A stretch of 64,000 bases of DNA. It comes from an uncultured Acidobacteriota bacterium. Its GTDB lineage: Bacteria; Acidobacteriota; Polarisedimenticolia; Polarisedimenticolales; DASRJG01. Position 1 is the stretch's first letter. Each line of letters opens with the position of its first letter. Shown here one piece after another: positions 5,344 through 63,806 of this stretch. Where the stretch lies: the NCBI GenBank assembly GCA_964383585.1, contig CAYLHQ010000004.1:10939-74938 (forward strand). The letters run 5' to 3'. A program made the translations under genes and the position numbers. The notes under the pieces were generated by a model. That model did not search any database and had not been told where the DNA came from. It saw nothing but the letters and a program-made list of their open reading frames with translations.

Positions 5344-6534
5344 TCAGAGGCCGCGAAGGGCGACGGCGACCTCGGTCCGCGCCGCGCGGATCGCCGGAAA
5401 GAGTCCGCCAACGAAGCCCATCACGAGGGCGTAGGCGATCCCTCCCGCCAAGAGGGAGGGAGTGACCGTCAGCCGGAAGGCGACCTGGCTGAACGTCTGC
5501 CAGTTGATCGTGGCGGTCTGGTACCCGTTCACGGTGAGCCAGGCGAGGCCCCCCCCGAGGAGCCCGCCGATGACGGCGAGGAGGAGCGACTCGACCAGCA
5601 CCGAAAGGACCACCGGCCCGGCCTGGAACCCGAGGGCGCGCAGGGTCGCGATCTCCTTCCGGCGGGAGGCGACCGCGTTGTACATCGTGTTGAGCGCACC
5701 GAAGGTGGCCCCGACCGCCATGAGCAGCGCGATCAGGTTCCCGAGCACGCCGATCAGCGTGCGGAGCGCGGTCGACTGGGAGGCGTACCACTCGCGCTCG
5801 CGGTGCACGTCGACGTCGAGCCTCGGGTCGGAGGTCAGCGCGTCCTTGAAGGACTGGAACCTCTCCGCCGACTCGAGCCGGACGAAGACCGACTGGAAGG
5901 TGTTGCCGCGGCGGTACGCCGGCTGGACGACCCGGGCGTCCGCCCAGATCTCCGACTCGAAGAGCGAGCCGTTCGCGTCGAATATCCCGACGACCTCCCA
6001 CTCGTTCTCGCCCCAGCGGAGCCGGTTCCCGAGATCGAGTCCCGCGAACTGACTGGACGCTGCCCGCCCGGCGATCACCTCGTTGCGTCCCTCGACGAAC
6101 CGCCTTCCCTCGACGATCCGCACGTCTCCCCGGACGTCGAAGGCGGCGGCTTCCACCCCCCGCAACGGAACGTTGGCGTCGGTGCCCGAGGCGCGGTACG
6201 GCACGTCAACGATCACGAAGAGCTCGGCGGAGGCGACCGGGGCGCCGTCGCGGCGGAGGATGCCCGGCGCGTCCTTCACGATCTTCGCTTGCTCGAGATC
6301 GAATCCGCTCGACATCTCGCTGTCGCTGCCGCCGCGAAGGACGATCGCCACGTCGTCCCGCCCCCCGCTTTCCATCACGTGGCGGAACCCCTCCGCGATC
6401 GAGAGGACGGCGACGAACACGGCGACGACCCCGGCGAACCCGAAGACGGCGACCGCCGACGCGCCGAACCGCTGCGGGAGGCTCCGCAGGTTGAGAAGGC
6501 TCACGACCGCCGTCTGGAAGAGCCAGCGTGTCAT
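5344..6534 (-). CDS. ABC exporter permease, FtsX/MacB-type
   Basis: N-terminal TM helix, large periplasmic domain, and a C-terminal FtsX 3-TM bundle (RRKEIATLRALGF...). The ATG at 6534 overlaps the upstream stop (ATGA). Confidence 0.85.
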   Translation of the reverse strand: MTRWLFQTAVVSLLNLRSLPQRFGASAVAVFGFAGVVAVFVAVLSIAEGFRHVMESGGRDDVAIVLRGGSDSEMSSGFDLEQAKIVKDAPGILRRDGAPVASAELFVIVDVPYRASGTDANVPLRGVEAAAFDVRGDVRIVEGRRFVEGRNEVIAGRAASSQFAGLDLGNRLRWGENEWEVVGIFDANGSLFESEIWADARVVQPAYRRGNTFQSVFVRLESAERFQSFKDALTSDPRLDVDVHREREWYASQSTALRTLIGVLGNLIALLMAVGATFGALNTMYNAVASRRKEIATLRALGFQAGPVVLSVLVESLLLAVIGGLLGGGLAWLTVNGYQTATINWQTFSQVAFRLTVTPSLLAGGIAYALVMGFVGGLFPAIRAARTEVAVALRGL

Positions 6535-7691
6535 CAGGTCCTCCGGAGCGCGTCGACGATCCGGAGGCGCATCGCGTTCCACGCCGGAATCGCGCCCGAA
6601 ACGGCCCCCAGGGCCGCCGCGAGGGCGAGCCCCGTCACGATCGTCGCGCGGGGCACGTAAAAGACCGGGAGGAACATCTCGACGAGGGGGTAGATCTTCG
6701 GCGCCGCGAGCCAGATCAGGGCGAGACCGGTCGCACCGCCCGTCACCGCCAGGAGCAGCGACTCGGCCATCACCATGGTCAGGACGCCCCCGTCGGTGAA
6801 GCCGAGGGTCTTGAGCACCCCGAGTTCGCTCGTCCGCTCGCGGACGGCCTGGGCCATCGTGTTCCCGGCGATCAGGAGGATCACGAAGAAGACGATCGCG
6901 GAGATCGCGGAGAGGATCGCTCCCGTGTCCCCGATCTGTTTGGCGAAGCTCTGCATGAACGCCTTCTCGGTCGTCGTCTTGGTCTCGTTCGGGGAGTTGG
7001 CGAAACGCGCGTCGATCGCCCTCGCGACCTCCACCGCCCGCTCCGGATCCTCGACCTCGACGACGTACCAACCGACCAGCCCGAGGTCGCCCATCCGCTC
7101 CATCAGGTACTTGTGGTGGAAGAAGAACTGGGTCTCGTCGACGTCCGGCCGATCTCCCGTGTAGATCCCGACGAGGTCGAACCGGAACTCCGCCGGACCG
7201 CCGTCCTGCGGCCGCCAGAACGTCGGCACGATCGGAATCGTGTCTCCGACCTTCCAACCGAAACGGGCCGCGAGCTTGCGTCCCGCGATCGCCCCGGAAC
7301 GCGTCCTCTCGAACGCCTCGCGCCGGTCGGCGGGGAGCAGGAACTCGGGGTAGATGTCGAGGTAGGGGCCGGGGACGACGGCGATCTGCGGAAAGAAGTT
7401 CTTGGGGTCCTTGTAAATCCCCCCGAACCAGGTTGCGTGCGTGGCTCTCGCCACCCCGGGAGTCCGTTCGATCTCGAGCAGGTAGCGCTCGGGGAGGAGC
7501 TGGATGATCGAGACCTTGTCGATCGTCAGGAGCCGGTTCTGCCCGGCGATCTGGATCCCCGCGTCGAAGCCGTTGCGCACGGCCATCAGGAGGCCGAAGA
7601 GGAAGAAGGCGACGACGATCGACAGGAAGGTGAACGTCGTCCGGACCTTCTTCCGGGTCAGGTTCCGCCAGAGCAGATGCAAGTATTTCAT
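6534..7691 (-). CDS. ABC exporter permease, FtsX/MacB-type (second copy)
   Basis: [33 protein letters not shown]... with C-terminal [15 protein letters not shown]. The start was chosen at 7691, just below the ATPase stop at 7702. Confidence 0.85.
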
Positions 7692-9968: not shown

Positions 9969-10348
9969 GGGTGGCGTTCGACACGAACCGCTACGTCGAC
10001 CTCTGCAAGGGGGTTCCGGAAACGGTTTCGATCGCGGAAACGGCGGAGGCCGTGTTCCTTCCCTTCGTGGTCGTCGCCGAGCTTCGGGCCGGGTTCGCCG
10101 CGGGACGCCGTCCCGGCGAGAACGAGCGCGTCCTCAGGCGGTTCCTCATGAAGAAGGGGGTCGGCGTCCTCTACGCCGGCGACGGCACCACGCATCGCTA
10201 CGCGGCGATCTTCCGGCAGCTTCGGACGCAGGGGACGCCGATCCCCGCGCACGATCCATGGATCGCAGCGCTCGTCCTCAAGCACGATCTCCTGCTGCAC
10301 TCCCGGGACCGGCACTTCGACCACGTGACGCAGATCGTGAGGGTGTGA
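9965..10348 (+). CDS. vapC: PIN-domain ribonuclease toxin VapC
   Basis: MRVAFDTNRYVD... (first acidic D), ...VVVAELRAG..., ...AHDPWIAAL..., ...LHSRDRHF. This is the classic PIN acidic quartet spacing. Confidence 0.85.
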   Translation: MRVAFDTNRYVDLCKGVPETVSIAETAEAVFLPFVVVAELRAGFAAGRRPGENERVLRRFLMKKGVGVLYAGDGTTHRYAAIFRQLRTQGTPIPAHDPWIAALVLKHDLLLHSRDRHFDHVTQIVRV

Positions 10349-10386
10349 ACCCCGGTGTTGCGGTCTCCCTCACGCTCTTGCATCCT

Positions 10387-10409
10387 GAGCCTCCCAGAAC
10401 AGGAGGCTC
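10387..10409 (+). promoter_or_regulatory. hairpin that pairs the S46 peptidase Shine-Dalgarno
   Basis: GAGCCTCC (10387-10394) and GGAGGCTC (10402-10409) form a perfect 8-bp inverted repeat with a 7-nt loop. The 3' arm contains the AGGAGG SD, 5 nt before ATG 10414. Confidence 0.3.
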
Positions 10410-10413
10410 CCGA

Positions 10414-12597
10414 ATGCGCGCCGCCCTTCGAATCCTCACCCTCCTACCCGTCGCTCTCGCGTCTCCCCTCTCCGCCGACGAGGGGATGTGGCTTCCCCGG
10501 CAGGTGCCGGCGCTCGCCGAGCGGCTCGCTGCGGCGGGCTTCGAGGGAGATGCCCGCGCCTTCGCCGACCTGACCGGGCAGCCCATGGGGGCGATCGTCT
10601 CGCTCGGGGGGTGCAGCGCCTCGTTCGTTTCCCCCGAGGGGCTCGTGGTCACGAACCACCACTGCGTGACCGGGGCGCTGCAGTACAACGCGACCCCGGA
10701 GCGCAATCTCCTCGTCGACGGCTACCATGCCCGCAGCGGGGAGGAAGAGCTCCCGGCAGGGCCCGGCTCGCGACTCTACGTCACCACCCGCGTGAAGGAC
10801 GTGACCGCCGACTTCGAGAAACGGATGAAGCCCGGCCTCACCGACCGCGAGCGGCACGATGTGGTCGATGTCTGGGTCAAGAAGCGGACGGCCGACTGCG
10901 AGAAAGGCGGCTCGAGGTGCCGGATCGCCTCCTTCTTCGGAGGGCTCGAGTGGCTCGAGATCGAGCAACTCGAGATCCAAGACGTGCGCCTCGTCTACGC
11001 GCCTCCCGAGGGGATCGGGAATTTCGGCGGCGAGGCCGACAACTGGCGGTGGCCGCGTCACGTCGGCGACTTCGCGTTCTACCGGGCCTACGTGCGGCCC
11101 GACGGCACGCCGGGCCCCTACGCCAAGGAGAACGTTCCCTACCGCCCGAATCGGTGGCTAGCGGTCTCGCCGAAGGGAGCGAACCCGGGCGATCTCGTCT
11201 TCGTCGCGGGCTACCCCGGTTCGACCGAGCGTCATCAGACCTACGGCGAGATCGCCGAAACGGCGGAGTGGAACCTGCCCCGTTCGATCCGGCGCGCGGA
11301 AGAGCAGATCGCCCTGGCCGACGCACTCGCGGCGGCGGGCACCGACATCGCGATCAAGGTCGAGAACCTGCGCCGGGGTCTCGCGAATGGCCTCACGAAC
11401 AATCGGGGGACGCTCGAGGGAATGAAGCGCGACCGCATCCTGGAACGGAAGAAGGAACGGCAGGACGAGCTGGTCGCATGGATCGCGGCGAGGCCGGAGC
11501 GGACGCGCGAGTTCGGGGGCGTCGTCTCCGACCTGGAGGCGCTCCGGGAAGAGAAGAACCGGACCCGCGAGCGCGACGCGGTGTACCGGGCTCTCGTCGG
11601 CGGACGCGGAGCGCTCCTCTCGGCGGCGGACACGCTGTATCAGCTCTCCCTGAACCGGCCGAAAAAGGACCTCGATCGGGAGAGCGAATACCAGGAGCGG
11701 AACTGGCGGCGCACGCGCGAGTCGCTCGAACGCCTCCAGAAGTACCTCGATCCGACGGTCGACCGGGCCTTTCTCCGGTATGTCGTCGTCGAGGCGGCAG
11801 CCCTCCCCGCGGGCTCGCGCATCGAGGCGATCGACCGGGCGGCTGGGCTCGCGCCCGGGATGTCGCAGGGCGACGCGGAAAAGGCGATCGACGCCTTCCT
11901 CGACCGACTCTACGCGGGTACGAAGCTGTTCGATCGGGAATACAGGGTCGGGCTTTTCGAGAAGTCGACGAAGGAGCTTCTCGCGACGGGGGACACGTTC
12001 CTCGAACTCGCCGCCGCGCTCGACCCGCTGGGGCGCGAGATCCTCGAAGCGTCCAAGGCGAGGGAGGGGGCCCGCTACCGCCTCGTGCCGCGCTACATGA
12101 AGGCCCTTCTCGCACAGGCCGGTGGGCTGACGGCCCCAGACGCGAACGGGACGCTCCGGGTGACCTACGGGCGGGTGCAGGGGGTCGACGGCAAGGACGG
12201 CCTCTTCCTCAAGCCCCAGACGACGCTCGCGGGGATCCCCCCGAAACACACGGGGGAGGGTGAGTTCGACGCTCCCGACCGTCTCCTCGAGGCGATCGAG
12301 AAGCTCCGCTCCGGCGCGAAGACCCCCTATCTCGATCCGGCGCTGGGGGACGTTCCCGTCGACTTCCTTTCGACCGCCGACACGACCGGGGGGAACTCCG
12401 GCTCCGCGACGCTCAACGCGCGTGGGGAACTCTGCGGCCTGCTCTTCGACGGGATGTACGAGACGGTCGCTTCGGATATCCTCTACGATCCCGTGCGCAC
12501 GAGGTCGATCCACGTCGACTCGCGGTACATGCTCTGGGTACTCTCCGAGGTCGCTGGGGCGGAGGAGCTGCTGCGGGAGCTGGGGATGCGGGAATGA
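10414..12597 (+). CDS. S46 family serine peptidase (dipeptidyl-peptidase 7/11-like)
   Basis: Signal peptide followed by the hallmark DEGMWLP, catalytic His in VVTNHHC, and Ser in TTGGNSGSA. About 727 aa. Confidence 0.9.
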   Translation: MRAALRILTLLPVALASPLSADEGMWLPRQVPALAERLAAAGFEGDARAFADLTGQPMGAIVSLGGCSASFVSPEGLVVTNHHCVTGALQYNATPERNLLVDGYHARSGEEELPAGPGSRLYVTTRVKDVTADFEKRMKPGLTDRERHDVVDVWVKKRTADCEKGGSRCRIASFFGGLEWLEIEQLEIQDVRLVYAPPEGIGNFGGEADNWRWPRHVGDFAFYRAYVRPDGTPGPYAKENVPYRPNRWLAVSPKGANPGDLVFVAGYPGSTERHQTYGEIAETAEWNLPRSIRRAEEQIALADALAAAGTDIAIKVENLRRGLANGLTNNRGTLEGMKRDRILERKKERQDELVAWIAARPERTREFGGVVSDLEALREEKNRTRERDAVYRALVGGRGALLSAADTLYQLSLNRPKKDLDRESEYQERNWRRTRESLERLQKYLDPTVDRAFLRYVVVEAAALPAGSRIEAIDRAAGLAPGMSQGDAEKAIDAFLDRLYAGTKLFDREYRVGLFEKSTKELLATGDTFLELAAALDPLGREILEASKAREGARYRLVPRYMKALLAQAGGLTAPDANGTLRVTYGRVQGVDGKDGLFLKPQTTLAGIPPKHTGEGEFDAPDRLLEAIEKLRSGAKTPYLDPALGDVPVDFLSTADTTGGNSGSATLNARGELCGLLFDGMYETVASDILYDPVRTRSIHVDSRYMLWVLSEVAGAEELLRELGMRE

Positions 12598-31360: not shown

Positions 31361-31407
31361 AAAGGGGACTGGCACCTTTTCGTTCCGAAAAGGTGCCAGT
31401 CCCCTTT
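31361..31407. repeat. REP hairpin doublet (20-bp perfect stem, 7-nt loop)
   Basis: AAAGGGGACTGGCACCTTTT cgttccg AAAAGGTGCCAGTCCCCTTT. It lies in a divergent intergenic region. Confidence 0.9.
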
Positions 31408-34002: not shown

Positions 34003-34748
34003 CCGAGCGCCACGACGGGAGGGGGCCGCGCGACCTGCGCCCGGTGACGATCGAGACCGGATGGCTCAAGCGTTCCCCCGGGAGCGCCCTGATCTCCATC
34101 GGCGACACGCGCGTCCTCTGCTCGGTGTCGGTCGAGGAGCGCGTCCCTCCCTTCCTCGTGGGTACGGGGACGGGCTGGGTGACCGGCGAGTACGGGATGC
34201 TCCCGGGCTCTTCGAACCCGCGAATCGCGCGGGAGTCGTCGAAGGGGAGGCCGTCGGGGCGCACGATGGAGATCCAGCGGCTGATCGGCCGCGCCCTCCG
34301 CGTCGTCGTCGACCGGGTCGCCCTCGGCCCGCGCACCCTCTGGATCGACTGCGACGTTCTCCAGGCCGACGGGGGGACGCGGACCGCGAGCGTGACCGGG
34401 GCGTGGGTCGCCCTCGCCCTCGCCCTCGACCGGCTCCGCGAGGCGGGGACGATCGCCGCTCCCGCCCTCACCGGCCAGATCGCAGCGGTGTCGGTGGGGA
34501 TCGTTGCAGGAAACCCCTGCGTCGACCTCGACTACGTCGAGGACTCGGGCGCGGAGGTCGACATGAACGTCGTGCGCACCTCCGACGGGCGTTACGTCGA
34601 GGTGCAGGGGACGGCGGAGACGACGCCGTTCCGCCGCGACGGTCTCGGCGGGTTGCTCGACCTCGCCGACGACGGAATCGACCGGCTCCTCGCGATGCAA
34701 CGGGAGGCGGTGGGGGAGGCGCTCCCCCGCGTCGTGGCGGTGCCGTGA
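33999..34748 (+). CDS. rph: ribonuclease PH
   Basis: RHDGRGPRDLRPV, GSALISIGDTRVLC, GRTMEIQRLIGRALR, and DCDVLQADGGTRTA. Confidence 0.95.
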   Translation: MTERHDGRGPRDLRPVTIETGWLKRSPGSALISIGDTRVLCSVSVEERVPPFLVGTGTGWVTGEYGMLPGSSNPRIARESSKGRPSGRTMEIQRLIGRALRVVVDRVALGPRTLWIDCDVLQADGGTRTASVTGAWVALALALDRLREAGTIAAPALTGQIAAVSVGIVAGNPCVDLDYVEDSGAEVDMNVVRTSDGRYVEVQGTAETTPFRRDGLGGLLDLADDGIDRLLAMQREAVGEALPRVVAVP

Positions 34749-35335
34749 CGAGGCGACTCCTCGTCGCGACAGGGAACGCGGGAAAGCTCCGCGAGTTCCA
34801 ATCGGCGCTCGCGCCCTACGGGATCGAGGTCGTCGGGCTCGAGGCGCTCGCCGACCGGAGCGAGGACGCGGAGACGGGGAGGACGTTCGAGGAGAACGCC
34901 CGGCTGAAGGCCGAGGCGTACTCGCGGCGAACCGACCTACCGGTCCTCGCCGACGACTCGGGGCTCGAGGTCGATGCGCTCGGGGGACGGCCGGGGGTCC
35001 TCTCCGCGCGGCTCGGCGGGCCCGCGATGTCGGACGCCGCGCGCTGCAAGGCGGTCCTCAAGGGGCTCGTCGACGTCCCCGACGAGGCACGCACCGCGCG
35101 GTTCCGATGCGTTCTCGCCCTCGCCCGCGCGGGGAAGACGGTGGCGGTGGTCGAGGGCTCGGTCGAGGGGACGATCCTGCGGGAGCTTCGGGGTGGCGGA
35201 GGGTTCGGATACGACCCGATCTTCTTCCATCCTCCGTCGGGGAAGACCTTCGCCGAGATGACCCCCGAGGAAAAGGAGCGCGTCTCTCACCGAGGAGAGG
35301 CGATCAGAAAAGGGGACTGGCACCTTTTTCGATAG
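34745..35335 (+). CDS. rdgB: dITP/XTP pyrophosphatase (RdgB/HAM1 family)
   Basis: LLVATGNAGKLREF, DDSGLEVDAL, GFGYDPIF, and SHRG. The last 8 codons (KGDWHLFR) are encoded by a REP arm. Confidence 0.9.
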   Translation: MTRRLLVATGNAGKLREFQSALAPYGIEVVGLEALADRSEDAETGRTFEENARLKAEAYSRRTDLPVLADDSGLEVDALGGRPGVLSARLGGPAMSDAARCKAVLKGLVDVPDEARTARFRCVLALARAGKTVAVVEGSVEGTILRELRGGGGFGYDPIFFHPPSGKTFAEMTPEEKERVSHRGEAIRKGDWHLFR

Positions 35336-36035
35336 GGTCCTCCACTGGCGGGCGGGAACTGCCTTCCTCCGGTCCTTTCCGGATGCGCGGCCGTCCGCGC
35401 TCCCGGAGGCTCCCCTCGAGCCCGAGGTCGCGCGCGGTCTTCACCATCCACGCGGGTTCGCCGTAGGGCCTTCCGCGAACGAGGTGCTTCCGGAGCATCT
35501 CGACATCGGGAACCGGCTGATTCAGGTCGACGCGGGCCTCCCAGTCCTCGGGGCGGTCGATCGGGCCTGGGTCGCCGAACGTCGGCCAAGTTCCGCGCCG
35601 CCACCAGTGGATCGAGGACCACGGCCAGAGGGCGGCGCGCGACGCGAGTCCGGCGCGGACCGGGTTCCGCTCGACGTAAAGGAGCACGCGGAGCAGGTGC
35701 TCGTCTTCCTGAACCGGGAACGACTTGAATCGATCCTGCCAGACCCGTCCGCTCGATTCGTGACGGCCGTGGTATCTACGCACGTGGCTCGTCGTGAGCC
35801 TATGAAGGAAAAGGCTCAGGTCGCCGTCCGCAGCGGGCCACAGCACGAGGTGGAAGTGGTTGGGCATCAGGCAGTACGCCAGCACCCGGACGGGATGAGC
35901 CTCGTACGCGCGGGCAATCAGGTTCACGAATTGCTGATAGTCGGAGGCGTCGTGGAAGACCGTCGCTCGACGGTTTCCCCGGTTCATGACGTGGTAGCAC
36001 AACCCTCCGACGCACATGCGGCGGCCTCTCGGCAT
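35304..36035 (-). CDS. REP-associated tyrosine transposase (RAYT; IS200/IS605 TnpA Y1 HUH family)
   Basis: HUH motif in LMPNHFHLVL and a catalytic-Tyr helix in LLYVERNPVRAGL. About 243 aa, flanked by inverted REP arms. Confidence 0.85.
   Translation of the reverse strand: MPRGRRMCVGGLCYHVMNRGNRRATVFHDASDYQQFVNLIARAYEAHPVRVLAYCLMPNHFHLVLWPAADGDLSLFLHRLTTSHVRRYHGRHESSGRVWQDRFKSFPVQEDEHLLRVLLYVERNPVRAGLASRAALWPWSSIHWWRRGTWPTFGDPGPIDRPEDWEARVDLNQPVPDVEMLRKHLVRGRPYGEPAWMVKTARDLGLEGSLRERGRPRIRKGPEEGSSRPPVEDPIEKGASPLF
35308..35329. repeat. single REP arm, AAAAGGGGACTGGCACCTTTTT
   Basis: Exact match to the repeat-family consensus. It forms the left inverted terminus of the RAYT unit, paired with 36143-36163. 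Confidence 0.85.
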
Positions 36036-36110
36036 GGTTCGATTCCGGGGAGGCGGGCGGGACGCCAGCGAAAAACTAGGGCTCTTCGTGGCGGAACGCA
36101 AGGAGAGTGG

Positions 36111-36163
36111 AAAAAGGGGACTGGCACCTTTTCCGTCGAGGGAAAGGTGCCAGTCCCCTTTTT
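36111..36163. repeat. REP hairpin doublet (21-bp stem, 11-nt loop) with flanking T/A runs
   Basis: AAAAAGGGGACTGGCACCTTT tccgtcgaggg AAAGGTGCCAGTCCCCTTTTT. It lies 11 nt below the stop of gene 36174-37802, in a terminator-like position. Confidence 0.9.
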
Positions 36164-36173
36164 CCGCCAGCCT

Positions 36174-37802
36174 CTAGTCCACCAAGTACCAGTAGCTTTG
36201 CGGCGCGCTCAAAGCGCCGGCGTCGACGTAGGAGGTCCCCGAAGCGCCGGCGTCGACGGACGAGTCGAAGTGCGCGGGGGTCGGGCCGAGCGCGCGCCGC
36301 ACGAGGAAGGGGGCGGCGCCGTTGTCGTTCCACGAGAGCTTCACGCCGCTGGTCGCCGCGTCTTTCTCGAGGCGCACCGTGATCCGGGTCGTCGTCACCG
36401 TGAGGGCGAGCCTTGGCCCCTCGCCGCTCTCCCTGCTCGACCACTTCGCGAGCTCCGGTTCGACTCCCTCGATCACGAGTGTCACGATTCCGTCGGCGTC
36501 CCCCTTGACCGTCGACGTCACGCCGTGCGACATCGACCCATCCGGCGTCCACTCGGGGATCGCGCCCAGGTTCCCGGGGTCGAGCGCAGGTGCGTTCGCC
36601 CAGGTGATCGTCTGCTCCCCCCACGAAGTCCCGGCGGACGAGCGCATCAACCCCGTCCCCTTCGTGATCGTGCGCAGGCTCAGCTTCGCGTGGCGGATCT
36701 TCGTGCGCTCGATCCCGGAGAGATCGAACTTCATGTAGGCGCGCGCGACGTTCGTCGGGCCCGAGGTGCGGAGGTAGGTGAGAGAGCCGGAGTTCGACGA
36801 TGGCGCTCCCGACTCGACCGACGCGTCGGCGATCGCGTCCACCGTGACCAGATCGGTCAGGGAGTCCTGCCCCCACCAGCCCCTCGCGGTCGGCTCGGTC
36901 TCGAAAAACCGGTGGAGGAGGTCCGCGACTTTCTGCTCCCCCGAAGGGCGCAGGTGGATCCCGTCGTTCTCGAGGTCGTCGTAAAGCCAAACGAGCCCGT
37001 CATCCCGGCCGAGTTCACCGTCGGTCCACAGATACGGCCCCCACAGAAGGACCGGCGCCTCGACCGGGCCGCGCGCAGCGACCGGGTTGAGTGAGGGGTC
37101 GCCCTCGATCTGGTCCTCCACGAGCCACTTCACCGCGAAGCCGGTTTCGTAGCAGAGCGGTTCTCCGTGGTCGGGGCGATCGCTCCATCCGCCGTAGGTG
37201 CGCGACGAGACGTAGGCGAGGGCGACGTTCGGATACTTGTCCTTGACGTTGCGGGCGATCGCGGCGAGGTCGTCTCGGAGGGCGAGGGCGTGTTCGGGGA
37301 AGAGAAGGGTCGTCTGCGAGCCCCCGCCATGCTTGAGCCAGACGACCTGGACCTGCTCGGGGGTGATCCCGCTCGCGCGAACCCGGGCCTCGAGCTGCTC
37401 CCAGACCGGATCGCCCGGATTCCTCCACTCGAGGCTGCTCGCGGCGCCGACCGCGCCGTTCACGAGGACGAGGCGGCCGTTGCGCCGCACGTCCCGGTCG
37501 GCGTCACGCTCGAAGACCTTGGTCTCCTGGACGGTGTTCGACATCCCGATCGAGATCCAGCCGACCAAACCGTCCGGCGAGGGGACGCCGAGCGCGTCGC
37601 GAGAGACGATCGTCGCAGCGGCGTCCATCGCGATCGCGAGGTGGTCGCCCGGAGGGACGTTCGTCCCGCCGGGGTAGAGACCTCCTTGCTGCGCTTTGTA
37701 GAGCCCGGTCCCCAACTCGTCGAGCGGCGTGAAGCCGGTCGACGGGCCCGCCCACGAATACATCGAAAACAGGGCAACCGCCCCGAGAGCCCCCCACCGC
37801 AT
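36174..37802 (-). CDS. secreted protein: esterase-like N-domain (GMSNT motif), DNRLRE/CBM96-like domain, FN3-like C-terminus
   Basis: Signal peptide MRWGALGAVALFSMYSWA. Also WISIGMSNT, ...ADASVESGAPSSNSG...RAYMKFDLSGI...SWGEQTITWANAP, and the end ...SYWYLVD. Confidence 0.7.
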   Translation of the reverse strand: MRWGALGAVALFSMYSWAGPSTGFTPLDELGTGLYKAQQGGLYPGGTNVPPGDHLAIAMDAAATIVSRDALGVPSPDGLVGWISIGMSNTVQETKVFERDADRDVRRNGRLVLVNGAVGAASSLEWRNPGDPVWEQLEARVRASGITPEQVQVVWLKHGGGSQTTLLFPEHALALRDDLAAIARNVKDKYPNVALAYVSSRTYGGWSDRPDHGEPLCYETGFAVKWLVEDQIEGDPSLNPVAARGPVEAPVLLWGPYLWTDGELGRDDGLVWLYDDLENDGIHLRPSGEQKVADLLHRFFETEPTARGWWGQDSLTDLVTVDAIADASVESGAPSSNSGSLTYLRTSGPTNVARAYMKFDLSGIERTKIRHAKLSLRTITKGTGLMRSSAGTSWGEQTITWANAPALDPGNLGAIPEWTPDGSMSHGVTSTVKGDADGIVTLVIEGVEPELAKWSSRESGEGPRLALTVTTTRITVRLEKDAATSGVKLSWNDNGAAPFLVRRALGPTPAHFDSSVDAGASGTSYVDAGALSAPQSYWYLVD

Positions 37803-37918: not shown

Positions 37919-37967
37919 AAAGGGGACTGGCACCTTTTCCGTTTTGGAAAAGGTGCCAGTCCCCTTT
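37919..37967. repeat. REP hairpin doublet (22-bp stem, 5-nt loop)
   Basis: AAAGGGGACTGGCACCTTTTCC gtttt GGAAAAGGTGCCAGTCCCCTTT. The right arm abuts and overlaps the TAA stop of gene 37966-39579. Confidence 0.9.
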
Positions 37968-39579
37968 AATCGACCAGGTACCAGTAGCTTTGCGAATCGT
38001 CGAGCGCGCCCGCGTCGGAGAACTCCGTTCCCGGGACCGGTGTGCTCACGGCCTTCTCGAAGTCCGCGGGGGTCGGCCCGAGCGCGCGCCGCACGGCGAA
38101 GGGACGGAGCCCCGTGTCGTTCCAGCGGAGGACCACGCCCGCGCTCGCGAGGTCCTTCTCCAACCGCAGCGTGATCCGCGCGGTCGGAACGGTGAGTATC
38201 AGGCGCGGCGGCTCGCCGCTCTCCCGCGCCTGCCACCGCCGCACCGTCGCGTCGGCCCCCTCGACGACGAGCGTGACGACACCGTCGGCGTCTGCGCCCA
38301 CCGTCCCGGTCACGTCGTGCGCCATCGAGGAGTCGTGGCTCCATTTCGGAATCGCCCCGAGCGAGCCGGGATCGGGAGGAGGGGCGTTCGCCCAGGTGAT
38401 CGCCGCCTCGCTCCAACCCGTGTCGGCCGACGACCGCAAGAGTCCGAGCCCCTCGCTCAACGTCCGAAGCGAGAGCTTCGCGTGCACGACGTCCCGTCCG
38501 CCGACGTCGAACTTCAAGTACGCCCGCCCGACCGAGATCACTCCCACCGTACGCAGGAACGTGTTCCCCCCGTTGTTGAGGGAGGGGGACGCCGAGTCGA
38601 CCGACGCGTCGGCGATCGCGTCGATCGCGACGCGGTCGGTCCCGTCATCCGGCCCCCACCACGCCCGCGCGGTTTCCTCGACTTCGAAGAAACGAAGGAG
38701 GAGATCGCCGACCTTCCGCTCCCCCGACGGGGACGGATGGATCGCGTCGGCCTCGAGGTCCTCGCGCAACCACGCGAGCCCGTCCGCGCGCGGCACCTCC
38801 CCGTCCGCCCAGAGGTACGGCCCCCAGAGGAGGAGCGGCGCCTCGACCGGTCCGCGGACGGGATCGAACTCGAGGCCCGGATCCCCGGCGATCTGGTCCT
38901 CGATCAGCCACTTCACCGAGAATCCCGTCTCGTACGAGAGCGGCTCCCCGCGATCGGGCCGGTCGCTCCAGCCGCCGTAGATGCGGGACGACAGGTAGCA
39001 GAGCCTCGCGTTCGGGAAACGGTCGCGCAGGTTCCGCACGATGAGGCGGAGGTCGTTCTCGAGATCGAGGGCATGGGCCGGGAAGGCGGTCGTGGCCGGC
39101 GCACCCTGCGCCGTCTTGAGCCACACGACTTGCACCTGAGCCGCCGCGAGTCCCGCCGCCTCGAGCCGTTCCTCGAGCATCGTCCAGACCGGATGCGCGA
39201 TGTCGCGCCACTCCTGGCTGCTCATCCCCCCCGCCGCTCCGTTCACGAGGACGACCCGCGCATTGCGGCGCGGATCGGCGTCGGAATCGCGTTCGAAGAC
39301 CTTGAACTCCTGGGTCGTGTTCGACATCCCGATCGAGACCCACCCGATGAGCCCGTCGGAGGAGGGGTTCCCCGCCGCGTCGCGCGGTACGACCTCGTGC
39401 GCCTCGGCGAAAGCCGCGTCGAAGTGGCCCGGAGGAGGGACGTTCGCGCCGCCGGGATAGAGCCCGCCCTGGACCCCGAGGTACGTTCCCGGCCCCAGTT
39501 CGTTCAACGGCGTCAGCCCCGCCGCCGCGCCGGCCGGCGAAACGAGACACGCGAGGGAGAGGATCGCCGCGATCCGCAT
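37966..39579 (-). CDS. tandem paralog of 36174-37802 (esterase-like + DNRLRE-like + FN3-like)
   Basis: Collinear with its neighbour along the full length (WVSIGMSNT, RAYLKFDVGG, GWSEAAITWANAP, ...SYWYLVD). Signal peptide MRIAAILSLACLVSPAGA. Confidence 0.7.
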   Translation of the reverse strand: MRIAAILSLACLVSPAGAAAGLTPLNELGPGTYLGVQGGLYPGGANVPPPGHFDAAFAEAHEVVPRDAAGNPSSDGLIGWVSIGMSNTTQEFKVFERDSDADPRRNARVVLVNGAAGGMSSQEWRDIAHPVWTMLEERLEAAGLAAAQVQVVWLKTAQGAPATTAFPAHALDLENDLRLIVRNLRDRFPNARLCYLSSRIYGGWSDRPDRGEPLSYETGFSVKWLIEDQIAGDPGLEFDPVRGPVEAPLLLWGPYLWADGEVPRADGLAWLREDLEADAIHPSPSGERKVGDLLLRFFEVEETARAWWGPDDGTDRVAIDAIADASVDSASPSLNNGGNTFLRTVGVISVGRAYLKFDVGGRDVVHAKLSLRTLSEGLGLLRSSADTGWSEAAITWANAPPPDPGSLGAIPKWSHDSSMAHDVTGTVGADADGVVTLVVEGADATVRRWQARESGEPPRLILTVPTARITLRLEKDLASAGVVLRWNDTGLRPFAVRRALGPTPADFEKAVSTPVPGTEFSDAGALDDSQSYWYLVD

Positions 39580-39619: not shown

Positions 39620-39642
39620 AAAAGGGGACTGGCACCTTTTCC
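39620..39642. repeat. single REP arm
   Basis: AAAAGGGGACTGGCACCTTTTCC, 4 nt from the stop codon of the DDE integrase gene. Confidence 0.85.
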
Positions 39643-39646
39643 GACC

Positions 39647-40927
39647 TCACGCCGCCCGCTCGAGCGCGACGACCGGCAGGTGGCGCCGGCCGTCCAAGAA
39701 CCTCACCCGCACGTCGGGGACGGCCCCCGGGGAACCGGCGCCTCGCAACGCCGTGGGCGGGCCTCCCGAGTACGCCTCGTCCGGCGTCGCCCCCGCAAGC
39801 CTCTCGTGCGGTCGCAGCCCGTTGTACCAGCACCGGAAGAGCGAAAGCTCCTCCCGAAGGGCGGCCGCCGAGTAGGCGACGACGACCCGCCGCGTGCACT
39901 CGCGCTTCATCGTCTGGATCAGCCGCTCGATCACCGCGATGCTCCCGAACTGACCGATCGCCCCGAACCACTGCCGCATCCCGAGGCGTGCGCACCACGT
40001 GCGGAACCTCCGCTCGCGAAACTGCCAACCGTGATCCGTGACGAGAACCCGCGGCCGGCTGCCCGACTCGCGCACGACGCAGCCGAGAAACCTCCGCACC
40101 GCCCGCGCGGACGGCTGCCCCCTGAAGACCTCGAACCCGAGGAGGCGTCGCGAAAAGTGGTCGGCGACGACCGCGACCCACCAGCAGTAGGGCCAGCGCT
40201 GCGGGAACGAGAAAGGAAACCACGAAACCCACAAGCCCAGGGAGGTCGGGACGATCGTGAGGTCGCAATGCCAGACATGATTCGGATAGCGCCCGACGAT
40301 CCGCCGTCCCGGCGTGCGCTCGGCGACGGGGTCCCTCCCGGCGCCCGGGTTTCCCTTCTCGCGGAGCATCCGCCGGACCGTGGTCGCCCCGAGATGCAGC
40401 CCTTCGCGGCACAGCACCTGCGCGATCTTCTTGTAGCCGAGACTCGGGCACAGGAGCTTCAATCGCCGTACGATGTACGAGACGAACTCGGGGAACTTGT
40501 TCACGGGAGTGGGGAGTTGAACGACCGCCGTGGGACCTTCGTCTCTCAGCCGCCGCATCCAGGCAGACACGGTGGCGGGGGAGACCAGAAGCCGGTTCGC
40601 GGCCTGCGTGAGGGACCATCCGCGGCAGGCGCGCAGCTCGAGGATGGCGAGCCGTTCGGTCGGTGCGTAGTGCGGCCGCTCCGGCGCGGGGATTCGGGCC
40701 ATGCGGGCGTCCTTGATGCGGATTTCCTCCTGGAGCAACGCCACCTCCTGGCGCAGCCGATCGACCTCGGTCTTCAGACGGACCCGGGCACTGCGATGAT
40801 TCGCCGCCCAGCCGCGGCTCGTGACGAGCGCGGTGTGGGCGAGCGCGCAGACGTGGATGACGGCGGAGCGGACCCGCTTCGGCCACCCCTTGGGAAGCAC
40901 GGCGCCGAAGTTCGGTTGATGGGTCAT
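39647..40927 (-). CDS. DDE-type integrase/transposase (rve core; IS481/IS3-superfamily-like) with N-terminal HTH
   Basis: HTH in RGWSLTQAANRLLVSPATVSAWMRRL. DDE triad: HVWHCDLT, LVTDHGWQF, and E 36 residues later in AVIERLIQTMKRE. RBS GGGAGGA before ATG 40927. Terminal inverted repeats were not identified. Confidence 0.85.
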   Translation of the reverse strand: MTHQPNFGAVLPKGWPKRVRSAVIHVCALAHTALVTSRGWAANHRSARVRLKTEVDRLRQEVALLQEEIRIKDARMARIPAPERPHYAPTERLAILELRACRGWSLTQAANRLLVSPATVSAWMRRLRDEGPTAVVQLPTPVNKFPEFVSYIVRRLKLLCPSLGYKKIAQVLCREGLHLGATTVRRMLREKGNPGAGRDPVAERTPGRRIVGRYPNHVWHCDLTIVPTSLGLWVSWFPFSFPQRWPYCWWVAVVADHFSRRLLGFEVFRGQPSARAVRRFLGCVVRESGSRPRVLVTDHGWQFRERRFRTWCARLGMRQWFGAIGQFGSIAVIERLIQTMKRECTRRVVVAYSAAALREELSLFRCWYNGLRPHERLAGATPDEAYSGGPPTALRGAGSPGAVPDVRVRFLDGRRHLPVVALERAA

Positions 40928-41151: not shown

Positions 41152-41226
41152 TCCTGAGTAGCTCAGTGGTAGAGCAGGCGGCTGTTAACCGCCGGGTCGG
41201 GGGTTCAAATCCCTCCTCAGGAGCCA
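41152..41226 (+). tRNA. tRNA-Asn (anticodon GTT), CCA encoded
   Basis: Acceptor TCCTGAG/CTCAGGA, D-stem GCTC/GAGC, anticodon stem GGCGG/CCGCC with loop CTGTTAA, T-arm GGGGG-TTCAAAT-CCCTC, discriminator G plus CCA. Confidence 0.95.
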
Positions 41227-63259: not shown

Positions 63260-63759
63260 GGCGGAACCTCCTTTCCGCAGCGGGTGGAACTCGACTCTTC
63301 GCCATCCTACTCTAGACATTCCGGTTGGGACTAGAGTTCGGTCGCGGGGTCCGATGAGCCCGCGGACCCTGCCGTCTCGAGGCATGAGCACGGCGAGCCG
63401 GGAACGGCGAGAGTCGGCATGTGGGACGGGAACTCGGACTCCTCGTGATCCTTGCGCGCTCGGTGGTTGGGACGTTGTTTCGGCGGCGGAGGGACCGAAC
63501 GTCGTGAGGTCCGGGGCGGGCGACGTCGCGCCGGCGGGGACCTTCCGGGACCCGTTTCGATCCGTGAGGACCTCGACGACGGGACGACGCTCGCCTTCGA
63601 AGGGACGCTCACGCTCGAACCGCAGCCGGAGGTGGCGTTCTTTTTCGCGTACGGGCGCACCTCGACACGGAAGCCGACGCGGAGAACCGCGAGTTGGCGG
63701 CGACCCGATCGACGTGACCCTCTGGGTCGCGCAGCTCTCGGCGGGCGTGATTGAGGAAC

Positions 63760-63806
63760 GGGGACAGGCACCTTTTCGAGCACGAAAAGGTGCCTGTCCC
63801 CTTTTT
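63760..63806. repeat. variant REP hairpin (19-bp stem, 4-nt loop) followed by T5; terminator-like
   Basis: GGGGACAGGCACCTTTTCG agca CGAAAAGGTGCCTGTCCCC TTTTT. It differs from the main family (ACTGG becomes ACAGG) with a matching change in the other arm. Confidence 0.8.

Follow-up and report, generated by a model that had tools for sequence, protein, structure and literature searches.

A TIRYT-type HUH/Y1 gene bracketed by inverted arms that recur as hairpin doublets in an uncultured Acidobacteriota bacterium

Not all genes that resemble those of RAYTs (tyrosine transposases associated with REPs; REP, repetitive extragenic palindrome) are accompanied by classical REPs. Di Nocera, De Gregorio and Rocco (2013; PMC3733652) described RAYT-like genes lying between long terminal inverted repeats (TIRs), and not between REPs of the GTAG type, and gave this arrangement the names TIRYT and TIRtron. 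Many of these TIRs, though not all, share the sequence GGGGWSAS; they lie at similar distances from the open reading frame (ORF), may overlap its ends, and in some genomes (among them those of Stenotrophomonas maltophilia and of Koribacter versatilis, an acidobacterium) make up families of moderate abundance, as singles, dimers or clusters. In the classification of Quentin et al. (2018; PMC6006769) the TIRYTs are subclass 2.1 of the TnpAY1 proteins, corresponding to Group 1 of Bertels et al. (2017; PMC5581495). Proteins of subclass 2.1 have a median length of 238 aa, the motifs NHVH or NH[YF]H, W[EQ], YIELNP or Y[IV]HLNP, and SS, and a C-terminal extension similar to Bac_DnaA_C, HTH_23 or HTH_28; no REP-like repeats were reported for them (PMC6006769). 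Group 1 is widely distributed, with some copies on plasmids, has a duplicate rate of 6.3% (the highest among the true RAYT groups and surpassed only by Group 6, which lies inside IS200), and is flanked by modestly abundant 16-mers, at ~12 per replicon (PMC5581495). Here we analyze a locus of this kind in a stretch of 64,000 nucleotides, hereafter the window, from an uncultured Acidobacteriota bacterium (contig CAYLHQ010000004.1), in which a gene encoding a HUH/Y1 protein lies between two inverted arms that recur nearby as hairpin-forming doublets.

The locus is a TIRYT/TIRtron, the kind equated with subclass 2.1 and Group 1, and is a new and unusually tidy member of the family that does not define a new class. 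Membership was tested by BLASTP against the supplementary alignment of PMC3733652, in which the window protein is 51% identical to dau 2153, 47% to gbm 2474 and 43% to rba 2408 over ~217 aa, as compared with 24% over 144 aa for the E. coli RAYT b228 and 29% over 92 aa for the RAYT pfs 3939. An earlier, sequence-only reading of this DNA had raised the possibility of a distinct RAYT/REP class, which these identities and the existing name of the arrangement speak against; the architecture has already been described (PMC3733652). As in published TIRtrons, a RAYT-like HUH/Y1 protein in the range of ~220–240 aa with a long C-terminal extension is flanked by TIRs, which sometimes run over the ORF ends and whose head in the window resembles GGGGWSAS at seven of eight positions, and the repeats are found both as singles and as dimers (four doublets and two singles in the 64 kb of the window). 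Likewise, the motifs NHFH, WQ and WSS, the length of 243 aa, the conserved C-terminal extension and the wide, patchy taxonomic spread of the family all fit subclass 2.1 and RAYT Group 1. There are also departures: the Y motif, YVERNP, differs from that of subclass 2.1 at two positions; Pfam gives no Bac_DnaA_C, HTH_23 or HTH_28 signal in the C-terminus of the window protein; the arms are clearly repeated as hairpin doublets, whereas PMC6006769 reported no REP-like repeats for the subclass; and on the upstream side there stands a full doublet, at a greater distance from the ATG than other members of the family usually show.

The sequence-only reading had also assigned the 243-aa product to the Y1 transposases as a domesticated RAYT; that it is a RAYT-type Y1 enzyme and not an IS200 TnpA is borne out by several lines of evidence. 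The protein matches Pfam Y1_Tnp (1.6e-13) and passes, marginally, the NCBIfam model REP_Tyr_transpos (NF047646; 83.3 bits vs. a cutoff of 80). A sequence search of the PDB returned 4ER8, E. coli TnpA_REP, as the sole meaningful match (1.4e-8) and no match to IS200 or IS608, and 4ER8 is also the top fold match (E 6.5e-9, TMt 0.75) of an AlphaFold (AF2) model made from 29 sequences (mean pLDDT 82.7), ranking above the TnpA proteins of IS608 and ISDra2. No TnpB is found in the window. Both motifs on which that reading had relied are present, namely the HUH motif NHFH (within NHFHLVL) and the catalytic-Tyr motif YVERNP (within YVERNPVRAGL), together with WQ, WSS and an RGRPR tail; H60, H62, Y120 and the WSS motif are invariant in an alignment of 29 homologues. 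The protein begins MPRGRRMC, and its ATG start is kept in the orthologue discussed below and in 28 homologues beginning MPR..R; a longer ORF that a mechanical list extends to a TTG at 36101 was rejected as unsupported, the conserved start being the ATG. A homologue search returned 6184 matches, of which the best 120 are mostly 51–61% identical and come from Planctomycetota, Woeseiaceae, Nitrospirales and other groups. A search of the 64-kb window found no second copy of the gene. The gene has a G+C content of 0.665 and a third-position G+C (GC3) of 0.81, and all seven neighboring genes have higher values (GC3 0.87–0.94), a difference that would agree with low expression or with a foreign, older origin.

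The C-terminal extension deserves separate mention. It measures ~80 aa, is predicted to be helical (about residues 142–210), is conserved in homologues, is missing from the 165-aa E. coli enzyme, and closes with RPRGRPRK (residues ~209–217), of which RGRP is found in 113 of the best 120 of the 6184 homologues. The tail resembles the core of an AT-hook. Neither the C-terminal 107 aa nor three homologues gave any HTH (helix-turn-helix) family or DnaA_C in Pfam at E-values up to 10, within HMMER's filters. Tails of the RPRGRPRK type are visible in many published TIRYT sequences as well, and go unmentioned in the searched text of Quentin et al. (PMC6006769).

The locus may also be compared with better-known Y1 systems. 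The best match of its protein in the PDB, in both sequence and structure, is the E. coli TnpA_REP of the REPtron, but the identity is only 24% and the E. coli enzyme lacks the C-terminal domain. The single-copy, vertically inherited gene (one copy in the window, and a syntenic orthologue) with inverted flanks made of a dispersed repeat is reminiscent of REPtrons and of the Pseudomonas RAYT–REPIN systems (Nunvar 2010; Bertels & Rainey 2011; Messing 2012), and the four intergenic doublets, with their 22-bp stems and two inverted flanking repeats per hairpin, resemble REPINs in layout. Canonical REPs, those of subclasses 2.2/2.5 and Groups 2/3, are imperfect palindromes that fold on themselves and carry a GT[AG]G foot at the 5' end, whereas a single arm in the window folds weakly and reads GGTG at the equivalent position. 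With the TnpA proteins of IS200/IS605 elements, such as IS608 and ISDra2, the window protein shares the HUH/Y1 fold and, presumably, chemistry on single-stranded DNA. In these elements the Y motif is Y---Q, the protein is ~150 aa long, the hairpins are subterminal and TIRs are lacking, TnpB is a frequent partner, and identical copies are numerous; nothing of the kind is seen in the window, where the Y motif is YVERNP and the neighbors are CBM96 and Ham1p genes.

The flanking 20-nt arm of the gene, AAAGGTGCCAGTCCCCTTTT, has the head GGGGACTG and the layout A(3-5)-GGGGAC-TGGCACC-T(3-5), ~20 nt in all. The head fits GGGGWSAS at seven of eight positions, with a T at position 7, and the sister arms GGGGACAG and GGGGTCAG fit it fully. 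The sequence-only reading had described the two flanking arms as exact inverses, which they are (perfectly so over 20 nt), and as the same sequence that is scattered through the window as hairpins. The identity of flanking arms and dispersed hairpins holds; the spread had been overstated, as the 8.3 kb around the gene (31.3–39.7 kb) contain five of the six sites and only one is elsewhere. The bracket itself consists of inverse arms as had been stated, yet its upstream side is a complete doublet and not a single arm. Allowing up to three mismatches, the 19-mer core of the arm has 10 matches at these six sites in the 64-kb window, against 0.00 expected from 100 shuffles, and a scan of the window with a 13-mer core brought out no extra degenerate copies. 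The copies make up four inverted doublets and two lone arms (Table 1). A/T tracts bound every arm in a window that is 69.7% G+C. Folded as single-stranded DNA, the doublets give stems of ~22 bp with energies of -26 to -30 kcal/mol (z ~-10); the upstream doublet, which has 5–11 nt between its arms according to the extent of pairing counted, reaches -28.9 kcal/mol (z = -10.4); it follows the stop codon of CBM96 gene 1 by 12 nt and precedes the ATG of the Y1 gene by 77 nt. In the most distant doublet a T-to-A change is present in both arms, so that pairing is kept. The lone arm at the 3' end of the gene lies within coding sequence on both strands: the Y1 ORF and the convergent Ham1p/RdgB ORF share 32 nt at their 3' ends within the arm (35304-35335; 2980-3011 of contig L097), which encode the last residues of both proteins (KGASPLF* and KGDWHLFR*, respectively). 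Homologue P0003 has a similar C-terminus, KGDCPLF.

Table 1. Positions of the Y1 gene, its arms and doublets, and neighboring genes in the 64-kb window.
Feature	Coordinates	Strand	Remarks
TIRYT-type HUH/Y1 gene	35304..36035	(-)	243 aa from ATG; stop codon 35304-35306
Downstream (3') lone arm	35308..35329		core 35309-35327; + strand reads AAAAGGGGACTGGCACCTTTTT; identical in the 82% orthologue
Upstream doublet hairpin	36109..36165		outer arm 36143-36163, AAAGGTGCCAGTCCCCTTTTT, partner of the 3' arm; inner arm 36113-36131
Dispersed doublet hairpin	31361..31407		22/22 pairing; ~25 nt upstream of amidase_3 gene start
Dispersed doublet hairpin	37919..37967		adjoins stop codon of CBM96 gene 2
Lone arm	39621..39639		between stop of the rve-family insertion sequence (IS) transposase (39647) and start of CBM96 gene 2 (39579)
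Dispersed doublet, variant arm	63757..63804		arm GGGGACAGGCACC
Ham1p/RdgB-like gene	34745..35335	(+)	convergent; context, outside the element
CBM96 paralogues (genes 1 and 2)	36174-37802 and 37966-39579	(-), both	61% aa / 71% nt identical; both end QSYWYLVD*
rve-integrase + HTH transposase gene	39647-40927	(-)	IS481/IS3-like, 426 aa
tRNA-Asn(GTT)	41152-41226	(+)	

Two further candidates at the arms were considered and set aside. The sequence CCAGTAGCTTTGCG stands beside two of the doublets and might be taken for a GTAG head, but it is the coding 3' end (QSYWYLVD*) of the two CBM96 paralogues, whose shared coding sequence mimics a GTAG-containing repeat at these places. The lone arm at 39621 might be one half of a doublet split by the IS beside it, but a search that allowed up to three mismatches brought out no second half, whether at the far side of the IS or elsewhere. 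Rfam, run on the whole window, gave the tRNA-Asn only and no match at the hairpins, and a literature search for the arm sequence returned one unrelated match only.

Whether the bracket is a property of this locus or of the family was addressed with 80 loci obtained from a metagenome scan by protein alignment and four genomic loci, ~78 of which have usable flanks; for each homologue the 250 nt on the upstream side were compared with the 250 nt on the downstream side for the best inverted match. Most of the ~78 loci carry the bracket AAAAGGGG[AT]C...TTTT upstream of the ATG and its inverse after the stop. On the sense strand the arm consists of A(3-6)GGGG[AT]C, ~8 variable bases and a T-run; the upstream arm most often ends 33–45 nt before the ATG, and the inverse begins 0–30 nt past the stop. 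AAAAGGGGACATTCTACTTTT, AAAAGGGGACAGGCTACTTTT and AAAGGGGTCGGGAGTCTTTT are the arm types met most often. Read on the other strand, the two commonest sister types have GTAG where the window arm has GGTG (AAAA-GTAG-CCTGTCCCCTTTT); the head of the window arm is a variant of GTAG and not an unrelated sequence. The earlier observation that a GTAG head is not evident is correct for the window copy. The window arm type (GGGGACTGGCACC) surrounds no other sampled TIRYT locus.

The arm type follows the protein clade in a neighbor-joining tree of 79 proteins, and among proteins that share a 13-nt arm core exactly, the medians of pairwise identity are 52–65%. Conservation is thus far stronger in the arms than in the proteins, as is to be expected of cognate binding sites. 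The density of doublets varies by locus, with five in 6.5 kb at locus L123, extra doublets in the flanks of L102, L103, L112, L117 and L155, and only the two flanking arms at many others. L102 contains two TIRYT genes (6131-6841 and 10001-10684), 92% identical and 4 kb apart, each with the same arms, a pair that may be a unit duplication. The arms of L123, AAAAAGGTTCCTGACACCTTTTT, are the nearest in form to the window arm, and a near match to the variant arm of the most distant doublet, GGGGACAGGCACG, flanks a TIRYT in L130. These comparisons bear on one alternative, that the arms are ordinary intrinsic terminators, alike by chance, with the Y1 gene merely lying between two of them. Such a coincidence would account for the terminator-like shape of the doublets, one of which was called by a generic scan, but it leaves unexplained both the 10 copies of the 19-mer where none is expected and the recurrence of the same bracket in most of ~78 homologues from unrelated metagenomes, with an arm type that follows the clade. 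This alternative is effectively refuted.

How gene and arms have behaved over evolutionary time can be seen by comparison with a second Acidobacteriota metagenome-assembled genome (MAG), CAZVOE01, which holds an orthologue 82% identical at the amino acid level in the same CBM96–Y1–Ham1p–RNase PH–MurI neighborhood and with the same arms. Because the orthologue is syntenic and both its 3' arm and the 32-nt Ham1p overlap are identical, the Y1 gene is fixed and vertically inherited across this divergence; the nucleotide identity of the locus, 86.6–87%, reflects the same rate as that of its flanks. The upstream hairpin is present as well, at a point where the assembly has an N-gap and where two Logan contigs end. 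Away from the gene the picture is different. The doublet at 31361 is represented by a single arm at the same position of the MAG, and the one at 37919 is missing at the corresponding point. Within the window, each of the two CBM96 paralogues is followed by a doublet, the arms being 100% identical and the loops different. Between species the arms turn over; the gene stays fixed. The doublet, moreover, has the layout of the gene-bearing unit minus its gene and is structurally equivalent to a REPIN.

Assemblies tend to break at the doublets. Runs of N lie in or beside the CAZVOE01 hairpins (L007, L022, L040/L097 at ~2183-2193, L076), and Logan contigs start inside the upstream hairpin (ends of L098 and L099). 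Repeat counts from MAGs will for this reason be underestimates. The CAZVOE01 MAG also appears to have only one CBM96 copy at this place.

Two interpretations compete with that of a fixed gene and mobile arms. According to the first, the whole arm–gene–arm unit transposes as an autonomous IS-like element with an ordinary selfish transposase, and the doublets are its internal-deletion derivatives, comparable to miniature inverted-repeat transposable elements and moved by that same transposase. The TIR–gene–TIR layout is, after all, classic IS architecture, and the two copies with arms in L102, the duplicate rate and plasmid copies of Group 1 (PMC5581495), and the low GC3 of the Y1 gene would all suit such an element. 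Yet there is one gene copy in 64 kb, the orthologue is syntenic with the same Ham1p overlap in a locus that diverges like its flanks, no target-site duplication is visible at the six arm sites, and many homologue loci have two flanking arms only, with no sign of more copies of the unit; on balance, we consider an autonomous element unlikely. According to the second, domestication of the protein is complete, the arms being regulatory or terminator hairpins of the host without ongoing replicative spread. The enzyme would process or maintain these hairpins; it might, for example, resolve hairpins at replication forks or autoregulate through its flanking arms. This would agree with the position of doublets directly past stop codons, with the T-runs that flank them, with arms far more conserved than the proteins, with the fixed position of the gene and with the placement of the upstream arm at a conserved ~38 nt from the ATG in most homologues, which would suit an operator. 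It is harder to reconcile with arms that differ in presence or absence, and as doublet or single, between two close species, with identical arms behind old paralogues that are 71% identical, or with a doublet density that runs from that of L123 to none beyond the flanks in many loci. We regard full domestication as unlikely too.

The explanation that we favor, and hold to be probable, is that of a TIRtron in which a fixed TIRYT-type HUH/Y1 gene is bracketed by its own recognition arms, and these arms would be mobilized in trans. The Y1 protein would bind its own arms and cut and rejoin one DNA strand; the reaction would take place on single-stranded DNA, at doublets extruded as hairpins of 22 bp. 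Specificity would be set by the conserved GGGGAC head together with the variable segment of ~8 nt, and the A/T tracts at the edges of the arms may be a contact site of the C-terminal RPRGRPRK tail. By such a reaction doublets would be copied, deleted or homogenized in trans, the gene of the protein itself staying put. The doublet/single differences between species, the identical arms after 71%-identical paralogues and the uneven doublet density point to events of arm copying or loss. The doublets, lying directly past stop codons and with T-runs on both strands, are probably bidirectional terminators or stabilizers of 3' ends.

Several observations weigh against this explanation or parts of it. 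E. coli TnpA_REP and IS608 are the systems from which the nuclease activity and the mobilization in trans are extrapolated. As five of the six arm sites cluster around the gene, local duplication could explain some of the arm copies. Lone arms fold no better than shuffles (-3.9 to -5.5 kcal/mol, z ~-1.7), so that the canonical mode of recognition, a hairpin plus a 5' guide tetranucleotide, may not apply. The upstream arm is 77 or 107 nt from the ATG of the Y1 gene, as compared with the ~38 nt typical of the family. For the tail, the Pfam AT_hook model is sub-threshold (E = 0.15, in one homologue only), and, for termination, the generic terminator scan called only one doublet because its rule counts the T-run outside the stem.

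Beyond the family loci, the exact 19-mer was scanned against genome contigs (596 Gb), and 95 stretches of 8 kb were among the matches listed, to which the counts that follow refer. By our own arithmetic ~4 matches to a given 19-mer are expected by chance in 596 Gb, and isolated single matches (in Arcobacter, Diplocloster and Pseudobdellovibrionaceae) consequently carry no weight, whereas the multi-copy and doublet matches are not due to chance. CAZVOE01 has at least 23 arm sites on at least 14 segments, a MAG labelled Alcaligenaceae (CAYVRB01) has perfect doublets on at least six contigs, and a Limnoglobus MAG (JBGSJI01) has the exact 19-mer on at least eight contigs. Doublets with long spacers are found in a Planctomycetia MAG (CAVSFO01) and a Thermoguttaceae MAG, and a Clostridiales MAG and Desulfoscipio geothermicus have the 19-mer too. 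Dozens of Collinsella genomes have it as the apex of a conserved hairpin. When the Y1 protein was compared by tblastn with the 95 segments, no Y1 gene was found except on the contig of the orthologue.

These matches differ in form. The Collinsella hairpin has the composition ACCACCAC-arm-GTGGTGGT (L001, L004, L005, L008, L009 and ~50 further Collinsella/Coriobacteriaceae loci) and is usually present once per 8-kb segment, though thrice in L008. In the Limnoglobus MAG (L019, L023, L036, L042, L045, L049, L068, L090) the arm is followed by a conserved extension, TTGATTGGCnGATTTTT. In L045 this extension is paired to an inverted copy of itself, and the composite hairpin that results is longer; the arm is the same, but the doublet is built differently. 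The variant arm of the most distant window doublet is found, too, in the related MAG and in the Thermoguttaceae and Clostridiales MAGs (L010 445; L077 3817; L078 7336).

As to the surroundings of the locus, the source contig is matched by Logan assembly L096. Upstream of the Y1 gene lie the two tandem CBM96 genes, and downstream of it the convergent Ham1p/RdgB gene is followed by genes for RNase PH and glutamate racemase (MurI) and by a Germane-domain gene. The rve transposase gene sits between the lone arm at 39621-39639 and the tRNA-Asn(GTT), and L096 ends within this IS.

With the architecture and its name already in existence, the discovery is an incremental one. What the window offers is a clean and well-resolved acidobacterial example of a poorly studied Y1/HUH branch, in which the gene is fixed and has a syntenic orthologue, the arms are perfect and the doublets nearby turn over, and modest leads for specialists in the arm–protein co-variation, the AT-hook-like tail and the cross-phylum arm. 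The first of these leads, seen across the family, supplies concrete substrate–enzyme pairs for the study of DNA recognition. The agreement of arm type with protein clade, the identities of 52–65% behind identical arm cores, and the recurrence of the exact 19-mer, in doublets or in many copies, in Planctomycetota, Firmicutes and Actinobacteria also touch on a wider idea, which we put forward tentatively and with more doubt than conviction: TIRYT arms may be a few ancient, strongly conserved "address" sequences read by matching clades of protein, and the near-universal RPRGRPRK tail may dock on the A/T tracts. If this were true, the doublets of TIRs would form a family of mobile terminators, bidirectional and spread across phyla, with a readable protein–DNA recognition code, one that went undetected for subclass 2.1 by Quentin et al. 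(PMC6006769).

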